A stretch of DNA of 63,948 bases, filler included, from Candidatus Woesearchaeota archaeon (lineage in GTDB: Archaea; Nanobdellota; Nanobdellia; Woesearchaeales; CG1-02-33-12), in the NCBI GenBank assembly GCA_018399355.1. It is 5 parts of 5 records of this genome, joined end to end, with 100 filler letters (N's around TTAATTAATTAA, not from the genome) between each part and the next. Parts side by side here need not be neighbours in the genome. Positions count along the whole stretch, not along the records: positions 62,272 to 63,948 come from JAGYOA010000081.1; 4 more parts are not named here. One strand, given 5' to 3'. A program made the translations under genes and the position numbers. The notes beneath the pieces are model-generated. The model was given only the letters and a program-made list of their open reading frames with translations, was not told the origin of the DNA and ran no database searches. Shown here one piece after another: positions 62,272 to 63,948 of the stretch (position 1 is its first letter; each line of letters begins with the position of its first letter).

Positions 62272-62451
62272 TGCATTTTCAAAGTCTATTATTGTTGTGG
62301 TTGCCAAGGCTCCCTGTATTGTGAAGAGGATTATAATAGAATAAATCAGAAATATACTTATTTTTTTACTTATTTTTAACATTCTTCCTTTTATAAAGCT
62401 CAAGCTAAGTAAGAGAGGGATAAGCAAGACAAGAGTTATAAAAGGAGTCAC
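62272..62451 (-). CDS. Membrane/secreted protein, N-terminal fragment (contig end)
   Basis: SD GGAGG, GTG start, two hydrophobic segments ending ALA. Confidence 0.55.
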
Positions 62452-62464
62452 TATGCAACTCCTC

Positions 62465-62716
62465 CTATTCTCTTGCCCTGTATATACTCATACTTACAAA
62501 CAAAGATATCATCACTGCCAAAGCCATCATTACTGGCGTTGAATTAAGTATCAATGCAACCATGCTTCCCTCACTCATGTTTGTTGTTGCATTAACTCCC
62601 ACTTCAATAAATGCCTGTAATGGTCTTAATAGGATGGTGAACACTGCCATCATCATAAAAAAGGTAAGCAGCGACAATATAGTCATCTGTCCTTTCTTTG
62701 TCTTTATCTCTTTCAT
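62465..62716 (-). CDS. Small two-helix hydrophobic protein with KKGQ class III-like signal (putative virion/pilin protein)
   Basis: KKGQ, two hydrophobic helices, NAT/NMS sequons in loop. Confidence 0.6.
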   Translation of the reverse strand: MKEIKTKKGQMTILSLLTFFMMMAVFTILLRPLQAFIEVGVNATTNMSEGSMVALILNSTPVMMALAVMISLFVSMSIYRARE

Positions 62717-63135
62717 TGTCTCCCCTTCAATGCGACATATCCTGCCAAAAATACAAAGAGTGCTATCGCAAACATTATTGGTAAGTAATTCAATATAGTT
62801 CTACTCATAGACCCTTCTATATATCCATCAGGATAGTAAGTGTAATCTGCGTAGTAAGTCCCGTTGCTCTGGTTTAATAGTTTTATAGAACCGCTTGTCA
62901 GGTTAACATCATAGTCCGTCGAAGAGTTTAACTCTGTTCCAGTTCCATTTCTCACAGCTGAACTTGAAGCCCAGTCATCATAAGTCAATGCTACATAAGT
63001 GTTATTGACCCCTGAAAAACTCTCGTTTGTTACAGTGGTTGTTGTTGTTGAATCCTGCACAGAGCTCCATACTACCCCTATTAATATTATTCCTATCAAG
63101 GGAACTAACATTGCAGTTAATAATTTTTCATCCAT
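62713..63135 (-). CDS. Two-helix hydrophobic protein with glycosylated insert (putative spindle-virus capsid-like)
   Basis: N- and C-terminal hydrophobic helices, seven N-x-S/T sequons, ILNYLP in second helix. Confidence 0.55.
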   Translation of the reverse strand: MDEKLLTAMLVPLIGIILIGVVWSSVQDSTTTTTVTNESFSGVNNTYVALTYDDWASSSAVRNGTGTELNSSTDYDVNLTSGSIKLLNQSNGTYYADYTYYPDGYIEGSMSRTILNYLPIMFAIALFVFLAGYVALKGRQ

Positions 63136-63145
63136 TTTCTACTTT

Positions 63146-63340
63146 TCACCTCCATAAGTTTGAATATTCTGAAAAGCCGAATGATTTCTGCTTCTTGAAT
63201 CTTCTTGTACATTTTTTCCTTGTCCTGAATATCTTTATGTTATGTTTTCTTGCATACTCCTCTGCCTTTATTATTGCATCACTGCCATATCTCTTGTTGA
63301 ATCTTCTTACAATCCTTCTAAATTCCTCTGTCTGTGCCAT
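63146..63340 (-). CDS. Small highly basic protein (putative DNA-binding)
   Basis: 64 aa, Arg/Lys-rich. Confidence 0.6.
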   Translation of the reverse strand: MAQTEEFRRIVRRFNKRYGSDAIIKAEEYARKHNIKIFRTRKKCTRRFKKQKSFGFSEYSNLWR

Positions 63341-63343
63341 AGT

Positions 63344-63799
63344 TCAGAACCACCCTCCAAATTCTGGCTCTTTCTTTTTTCCTTTTCTTTTCTTTGAGCC
63401 AGAGCCTAAGAAGTCAACACCAAAATCATCTCCTCCAAGTAAATTGCTTCCTCCCCCGCCTAAGAAGTCAACACCTATTCCCTGTGGTTCTTTTTGTGGG
63501 CTTGATTTCCTCTTTGGCTTTTGGGATTCTGTTTCTGAAAGTTTTTTGATACCCGAACTGGCAGCCTTTCCTGCTCCCTCTGCTGCTTTGTTTATTCCTG
63601 TCTTTAATTTCTCTGAAAAGGATGGAGCCCTTGCCTTTTCTCTTGCCTTATTTCTCATAAGTTCCATTCTTTCAGTTCTTCTTTCTTCGTCTCTTTTTTC
63701 TTTCTGTTTTTTGTATTCTTCCTTGTATATCTTTCTCAGTTCTGCCTGTTGCTCCTTTCTCTCTTTCAGCTTGGCTTTTGTTTTGTCAAAAAATTTCAT
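63344..63799 (-). CDS. Basic low-complexity protein with GVDFLG repeats
   Basis: SD GAGGTGA; 18-bp repeat at 63404-63421 and 63458-63475. Confidence 0.65.
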   Translation of the reverse strand: MKFFDKTKAKLKERKEQQAELRKIYKEEYKKQKEKRDEERRTERMELMRNKAREKARAPSFSEKLKTGINKAAEGAGKAASSGIKKLSETESQKPKRKSSPQKEPQGIGVDFLGGGGSNLLGGDDFGVDFLGSGSKKRKGKKKEPEFGGWF

Positions 63800-63814
63800 A
63801 TTAATTCACCTCAA

Positions 63815-63948
63815 TCAAAATCTTATTTTCCCAAGCCTCTCCATTTCCACTGTTGGGAATATTGAGGCCCCAGTTAATATTCTTCTCTTGTACTTCTTCT
63901 TCTCCTTCTTTGTCCTTGCGGGATGTGTTGCAGAGCCGAAAGCAAGCT
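63815..63948 (-). CDS. 3' end of a basic protein (cut by window edge)
   Basis: Own translation LAFGSATHPARTKKEKKKYKRRILTGASIFPTVEMERLGKIRF*. Confidence 0.45.
   Translation of the reverse strand, partial: LAFGSATHPARTKKEKKKYKRRILTGASIFPTVEMERLGKIRF

Follow-up and report, generated by a model that had tools for sequence, protein, structure and literature searches.

The contig JAGYOA010000081.1 (C80) forms the last part, positions 62272..63948, of a 63,948-nt window, the whole stretch of DNA that was analysed, taken from the assembly of a Candidatus Woesearchaeota archaeon. It carries a block of small genes that is likely a piece of the structural (virion) arm of a spindle-type virus. C80 is a complete record of 1,677 bp with a GC content of 37.5% and belongs to a bin (G000) of 918 kb over 85 contigs. 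The record ends there, so the further contig sequence that the original prediction wanted inspected does not exist, and no overlap of at least 10 nt was found between the C80 termini and the other 84 contigs of the bin. The small genes are tightly packed on the same strand, as had been described, and all lie on the minus strand. Read along that strand they comprise the final 43 codons of a large Lys-rich protein whose gene continues beyond the contig edge (63815..63946), a basic protein of 151 amino acids (aa) (63344..63799; 41 Lys plus Arg residues, pI 10.0), a 64-aa Arg/Lys-rich protein (63146..63340; 20 Lys plus Arg residues, pI 11.0), a 140-aa coat-protein homologue (62713..63135), an 83-aa hydrophobic hairpin with a KKG↓Q leader and three sequons (62465..62716), the gene of which overlaps that of the 140-aa protein by 4 nt, and the first ~37 codons of a secreted protein with a Sec-type signal peptide, cut by the contig edge (62272..62382). 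For the latter, an ATG start at 62382 is more likely than a GTG at 62451. Ribosome-binding sites of the GGAGG/GAGGTGA type precede three of the genes. A Pfam scan of the six open reading frames (ORFs) returned nothing above cut-off, and a promoter and terminator scan with patterns of bacterial type remained at chance level. The C80 sequence is real: short contigs of ~99% identity cover parts of it in all four metagenome runs examined (lake water and sediment) of two studies, one of them possibly the source sample. Two of these contigs extend 163 and 224 nt beyond the C80 ends, and none joins C80 to other sequence.

The evidence for a virus centres on the 140-aa protein. An AlphaFold2 model from 17 sequences (mean pLDDT 81) shows a helix (residues 3-30), beta-strands (33-100) and a second helix (109-138), in agreement with the two terminal hydrophobic helices around an insert that were noticed at the outset. 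The seven N-glycosylation sequons counted then are also exact, all lying within the insert (N37, 44, 63, 70, 78, 88 and 91); shuffling the insert 10,000 times gave a mean of 2.3 (P=0.0006). The family is large. Among 1.84 billion cluster representatives (clusters at 50% identity), a 17-sequence profile recovered 1,428 with E<=0.001, of which 326 reached 1e-10. From the query and 134 of 150 listed hits a deeper profile of 135 sequences (A5) was built, leaving out hits that were fragmentary, over-long or matched in multiple stretches. Searched against 177,635 PDB sequences, A5 found SSV19 VP1 (7XDI) at E 2.3e-6, the runner-up standing at E 0.94; the first helix aligns with residues 15-47 and the second with 53-84. 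Comparison of the family with SSV1 VP1 by hhalign gave a probability of 91.6% (E 8e-7), against 56.7% for SSV1 VP3, 34.5% for His1 ORF21 and 1.1% for His1 ORF23. Hydrophobic bias was controlled by running A5 on 1,400 ORFs, comprising the whole bin, SSV1, His1 and the related loci described below: SSV1 VP1, SSV1 VP3, His1 ORF21 and His1 ORF23 ranked first (E 6e-8 to 9e-4), while the best host ORF, pilin-like ORFs included, reached E 0.006. It follows from this controlled, significant match that the 140-aa protein is a coat homologue. Furthermore, the protein matches PHROG 5402, annotated as virion structural protein (E 6e-4), and its look-alike clusters in the ESM Atlas are 96-100% viral. A shallow profile (A1) had reached SSV19 VP1 at E 7 and a mixed profile (A3) at E 0.089; A3 mixes families, which makes its database search circular, and it was not used as homology evidence.

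From its sequence, the 140-aa protein thus reads as a fusellovirus-type (VP1/VP3) coat hairpin with a beta-domain of ~75 aa inserted in the loop. A locus in another bin (G007:C106; L009:1802-3224) encodes four tandem hairpin paralogues of 88, 94, 100 and 168 aa with near-identical helices and lengthening loops, and this graded series shows that a plain hairpin gained the insert. All four carry K-G/A-Q leaders, as do 97/97 of their relatives. The 97-sequence profile of this hairpin type recognised neither the 83-aa protein nor the SSV1 and His1 coat proteins. Eight members of the 140-aa family (P0073, P0079, P0095, P0098, P0104, P0130, P0149 and P0151) are 222-291 aa long and match in two to four stretches, which suggests tandem repeats of the inserted beta-domain within one hairpin.

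The 83-aa protein, originally described as a two-helix protein with a KKGQ site, is modelled as a plain hairpin (helices 7-46 and 49-82; pLDDT 71) and has the KKG↓Q motif. In its family, 23 of 29 hits were aligned and are 66-79% identical. Of these 23, 20 have a class III (prepilin-type) leader with predicted cleavage, and all have the second, C-terminal membrane helix. In the ESM Atlas its look-alikes include clusters with VP1_VP3 (score 0.91, the family on 29% of members) and with His1_capsid (score 0.88, 62% of members), a lead to coat homology only. Its profile gave E 0.02 with the C80 140-aa protein and E 0.17 with SSV1 VP1. A fold search with the model found nothing in Foldseek, and VIA returned generic hairpins with Z up to 8.2, which are uninformative. 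His1 ORF24 was considered as a counterpart and rejected, as it gave no match. Shape, conservation and position make the 83-aa protein a candidate second coat protein. It is also, by a narrow margin over the 140-aa protein, the likelier major coat: it is better conserved and of typical size, and one related element (G133:C10) has short hairpins only. Pointing to the 140-aa protein instead are its place as first gene, its stronger ribosome-binding site and its proven homology.

The basic proteins noted originally are present as well. The counterpart of the Lys-rich fragment in the related locus L001 (L001:6425-8953) is an 842-aa protein, to the C-terminus of which the fragment is 69% identical over 36 aa. 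The 43-aa fragment gave no Pfam or PHROG match; the protein is likely an internal or DNA-associated component of the virion. The 151-aa protein, with a coiled N-terminal half and a Gly/Lys-rich tail, is 42-46% identical to syntenic proteins of L001, L002, L003 and L005 and is likely DNA-binding. The 64-aa protein is 42-45% identical to syntenic proteins at 4 loci. The suggestion that it corresponds to VP2 did not stand: a profile of five family sequences scored -1.0 bits against SSV1 VP2, and it was rejected as a VP2 homologue. Resembling VP2 in size and charge only, it is at most an analogue.

Six related metagenome loci place these genes in a wider context. L001, a 26.4-kb contig of which 20.4 kb was read, carries counterparts of all six C80 genes in unchanged order (42-74% identity). 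After them come a secreted DUF2341/Ig protein of 2,082 aa and two small membrane proteins. This adhesin-like gene stands where C80 has its signal-peptide start; the correspondence is one of position, with no sequence match. The other strand of L001 encodes a tyrosine integrase (E 2e-27), a Toprim plus D5-type primase-helicase, and HNH and HTH genes. The same strand also encodes a 283-aa AAA+ ATPase with Walker A and B motifs (PHROG 5484, E 1e-10). Against 50,697 phage records, its three best matches were all to records of the spindle virus TPV1 (E 4e-5); the fourth match was to the HTH tail of the ATPase. Its alignment with SSV1 B251 is weak. The part of L001 that was read (all but 5.8 kb) has no coat-type hairpin besides the 144- and 83-aa proteins, and a C80-type particle is therefore likely built from these two. 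Partial synteny with C80 was found in L002-L005, and G170:C51 has the same order. In L006 a 73-aa protein matching His1_capsid (E 0.005) adjoins the homologue of the 140-aa protein, and the locus has a Zot/M13 pI-like ATPase. Together with the VP1 homology, this synteny supports the spindle-virus structural module of the original prediction.

Host genes were not recognised on L001 (20.4 of 26.4 kb), L006 (10.8 of 17.4 kb), G133:C10 (28.0 kb, whole), G283:C21 (20.0 of 20.9 kb), G007:C106 or G170:C51, and no tRNA was found at 12 related loci. G133:C10 is a whole element of 28 kb in which no terminal repeat was found. One query for a virus-encoded prepilin peptidase found none in L001 (20.4 kb), L006, G007:C106/C88, G133:C10, G170:C51 or G283:C21. 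A stripped-down prepilin peptidase (A24, E 8e-6) is present on a virus-like contig of the bin (G000:C47:667-1089). A gene for a uL29-like ribosomal protein lies on two of the related elements (L009:5187-5438 on G007:C106 and L095:7928-8176 on G133:C10; Pfam E 2.3e-6, above the cut-off; 57% mutual identity), with no tblastn match in G000 or L001. The replication-arm DNA of L001 (L001:409-6200) is 83-98% identical to that of G133:C10 (11232-18580) and G007:C50/C88. Their coat modules, in contrast, differ in type and the primase-helicases share only 28% identity, from which it was concluded that these viruses exchange parts as mosaics. A GTDB pattern scan with A1 found no relatives, tblastn of the 140-aa protein against INPHARED gave none at E 10, and IMG/VR scans with the 140-aa protein, A1 and A2 found no confirmed relative, the last being pattern-seeded and thus not proof of absence.

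Taken together, C80 is with high probability the virion-gene block of a non-tailed, likely non-lytic spindle-type archaeal virus of ~26 kb, probably of the ultra-small Woesearchaeales. In such a virus both hairpins would sit in the host membrane, their loops facing outwards. There AglB of the host would glycosylate the loop sequons, and the host prepilin peptidase would cut the 83-aa protein after KKG. Genes for both enzymes are present in the bin (AglB, E 4e-38; prepilin peptidase, E 5e-16). The basic proteins would coat the genome and, by analogy with spindle viruses, the ATPase could drive extrusion or budding without lysis as the hairpins slide into place in a helical coat. Most of this coat may be made of the 83-aa protein, with the 140-aa paralogue displaying its glycosylated beta-domain on the surface, and the adhesin-like protein would bind the next cell.

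Several results weigh against this reading. C80 itself has no integrase or ATPase, as already noted in the original prediction, nor a replication gene, and none of the related contigs read is joined to host genes. The VP1 match depends on two hydrophobic helices. The structure prediction that had been proposed gave the helix-insert-helix model, but Foldseek with this model matched the insert only, weakly and to phage neck and tail beta-domains, and found no spindle-virus coat. Profile and fold tests of the 83-aa protein against known coat proteins gave nothing significant, and the 83-aa and 140-aa families do not match each other significantly (hhalign 1.4% and 12.8%). The class III leader is absent from the C80 140-aa protein; within its family it is found in 18/135 members under a strict and 39/135 under a loose definition, suggesting that C80 has lost a leader which these relatives retained. 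Finally, A1 matches only 2/400 other genomes of the order, a full-length A5 match is absent from 400 other high-quality Nanobdellota genomes, and the host signals come from searches inside Nanobdellota, without an outgroup.

The host is rather more probably than otherwise a member of Woesearchaeales, judging by binning, by composition and by the surface domains held in common. The ribosomal protein S7 of the bin is 92% identical to that of a Nanoarchaeia metagenome-assembled genome and 86% to that of a Woesearchaeota one. A1 matches three of 401 genomes of the order (G000, G007 and G170), and DNA and A4 searches add the related elements G133:C10 and G283:C21, so that related elements occur in five bins of one order (G000, G007, G133, G170 and G283), all as stand-alone contigs. 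Further phylum-wide A4 and A5 matches were mostly partial and N-terminal and, with the exception of G283:C21, were set aside as pilin-like noise; G538:C22 was rejected as a provirus candidate, being a host contig with a surface protein. The tetranucleotide distance of C80 falls inside the host spread (0.063 against 0.047 +/- 0.014 for the host), with 11% of 392 host fragments as far, and its GC content compares with 33.3 +/- 2.6% in the host. In the L001 adhesin-like protein, a segment of 206 aa has matches in 123/301 Nanobdellota genomes, a tally that takes in G220 and G506 (marked unpublished), and a G000 host gene is second best (46%, E 3e-37). A search at the DNA level gave matches in 233/401 genomes (nine of them likewise marked), mostly short noise (E up to 0.01); beyond these two tallies nothing depends on the genomes so marked. 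The best DNA matches of the adhesin (68-73%) come from the family to which the bin belongs and lie on contigs that carry host-type genes. None of the DNA matches in the 401 genomes was a clear CRISPR-spacer match and none was followed, and a simple 24-mer test found no CRISPR array in G000. The earlier proposal of a provirus or virus of a DPANN host is therefore supported as to the virus and probable as to the host; a provirus was not seen, given that none of the related contigs read has host genes.

Eighteen further contigs of G000 are virus-like (C28, C44, C47, C53, C55, C58, C59, C61, C62, C68, C69, C72, C73, C79 and C81-C84), carrying hairpin pairs (C55, C62), ATPases, integrases or a resolvase, and large basic proteins. 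They look like pieces of several related viruses. With C80 these nineteen contigs, picked by eye, amount to 61,790 bp. C72 (GC 38.7%) shows 72% DNA identity to a replication-arm gene of L001, and C72 and C80 may come from one virus genome. On host contig C15 (54564-60016) a low-GC (27%) run of uncharacterised same-strand ORFs of 685, 159, 360, 362, 75 and 187 aa was seen, several with one membrane helix.

The most serious competing explanation, held to be less probable than a Woesearchaeales host while keeping appreciable weight, is a spindle-type virus of another archaeon (the one on which the Woesearchaeales cell lives, for instance) that was placed in this bin by its composition or coverage. 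It is compatible with the virus part of the preferred reading. Several of the ~19 virus-like contigs in the bin are compositionally far from the host, related contigs were read without host genes, and the GC content of C80 departs from the host mean. However, few of the 19 are as host-like as C80, related elements recur in five bins of one order, and adhesin segments share 68-73% DNA identity with surface genes of the bin's own family. The shape of the particle is a separate matter. It is improbable that a rod-shaped or filamentous particle (APBV1-like, or extruded and inovirus-like), or a pleomorphic one, arises from these coat genes. In its favour, hairpin coats are, according to the available text of PMC12934983, common to spindle-shaped and bacilliform viruses, the L006 ATPase resembles M13 protein I and a bulky glycosylated insert could alter helical packing, whereas the closest solved or annotated relatives (SSV19, SSV1, His1 and TPV1) are all spindle viruses.

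The two non-viral explanations carry far less weight. That C80 is part of an integrative plasmid or defective satellite which has coat-like genes and makes no particle of its own is very unlikely; satellites with coat and/or ATPase genes have been described (SRCEs, 2.7-9 kb) and the L001 primase-helicase is of plasmid type, but L001 is 26 kb long and has both a complete structural arm and the 2,082-aa adhesin-like gene, and two records labelled as viral metagenome (P0230, P0231) contain related hairpins. Least probable of all, and hardly credible on present evidence, is a host type IV pilin-like or cell-surface operon, akin to the unusual pilin locus that the original prediction kept as its alternative. 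The KKG↓Q leader of the 83-aa protein would fit such an operon, class III-type proteins are many in the host (37 motif matches genome-wide, a few of them false or viral), and archaellin N-termini match A3 weakly (E 0.35-2). Pilins have a single N-terminal helix followed by a soluble head. Unlike pilins, the proteins of C80 belong to families in which the C-terminal membrane helix is kept in 135/135 and 23/23 members, which largely refutes the pilin locus as first proposed. SSV1 VP1 moreover ranks above all host pilin-like ORFs, the neighbours in relatives are integrase, primase-helicase and ATPase, a pilus-family match was found in 0/15 of the L001 ORFs scanned (of about 30), and presence is patchy (3/401 order genomes).

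The viral reading of C80 can be extended, tentatively and with considerable doubt, to a large, unnamed and globally spread family of lemon-shaped Woesearchaeales viruses whose only coats are a pilin-leader hairpin, cut by the host prepilin peptidase, and a VP1 homologue with a glycosylated beta-domain in its loop, giving the spindle an outer armour of sugar-bearing domains, and whose adhesins swap domains with host surface proteins; the protease that matures SSV1 VP1, long sought, would then be this same peptidase. According to the available part of PMC5748691, SSV1 VP1 is cleaved ahead of a glutamate, by a protease yet to be identified, and the five residues immediately upstream are needed. 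In the SSV1 record (X07234) K-G precedes the glutamate that opens mature VP1, which presumably corresponds to E66 of PMC5748691.

Spindle-type viruses of DPANN archaea as such have already been published (10.1101/2025.02.15.638363, available part). The literature searched described neither this group associated with Woesearchaeales nor a coat paralogue with an inserted domain; a description may exist in Wu, Liu and Ni 2024. Few viruses of Nanobdellota are known, a 2026 survey reporting in its available text only 30 provirus regions in 5,041 Thermoplasmatota and 2,275 Nanobdellota genomes (PMC13573593). A coat family of 1,428 clusters that the pattern-seeded IMG/VR scans and the INPHARED search missed points to a large overlooked virus group, likely widespread and with C80 as one of its fragments, which also swells Woesearchaeales bins (~62 kb here). 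C80 itself is a small fragment. The statistical tie to SSV19 VP1 shows that an entire domain can be accommodated in the loop of the spindle coat hairpin, and through the pilin-type leader the identity of the coat-maturation protease could be tested directly.

Wu, Liu and Ni 2024 reportedly include spindle-shaped groups among their DPANN-associated viruses. Of the known systems the Fuselloviridae (SSV19 VP1, 7XDI; SSV1 VP1/VP3, X07234) share the alignment of both helices of the 140-aa family, the adjacent hairpin pair beside small basic proteins and, in L001, the B251-type ATPase and tyrosine integrase. They differ in that the C80 type has the beta-domain in the loop and no detectable VP2 homologue, in the Toprim/D5-type primase-helicase of L001, and in a mesophilic lake and sediment setting with a Woesearchaeota/Nanoarchaeia bin in place of Sulfolobales; tblastn of the 140-aa protein and the L001 ATPase matched no fusellovirus record. 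In His1 (Halspiviridae, AF191796) the coat hairpin ORF21 matches A5 at E 1.6e-5, and ORF23 (L113:7823-8308, with an upstream ATG) has a helix-insert-helix arrangement with a short basic leader (E 9e-4 in the 1,400 ORFs). The genes after ORF23, as in the C80 layout, encode a small membrane protein, the gene of which overlaps, and secreted proteins. His1, however, is linear with a protein-primed polymerase, and the ORF23 homology is weak. Wyrdviruses, compared by description only, infect Asgard hosts and replicate by pPolB or rolling circle; they have one or two His1-like coat paralogues, an adhesin, a pI-like AAA+ ATPase and exchangeable replication modules, a set that recalls the elements studied here (10.1101/2021.07.29.453957, available part). 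For Tebi-SV1 a candidate coat protein, VP35, of ~17.5 kDa is given in the available text of PMC13612827. DNSV-1 and DNSV-2, also compared by description only, have a hypersaline Nanohaloarchaeota host, and the available part of their description mentions neither an inserted domain nor a class III leader; they have a DPANN host, two paralogous hairpin coats, an AAA+ ATPase and a tyrosine integrase, in genomes of 21-22 kb with a gene of >1,900 codons that is taken as an adhesin (10.1101/2025.02.15.638363). This gene set agrees with that of C80 and L001 taken together, where the DPANN host is probable, the second hairpin a candidate coat and the 2,082-aa protein adhesin-like.

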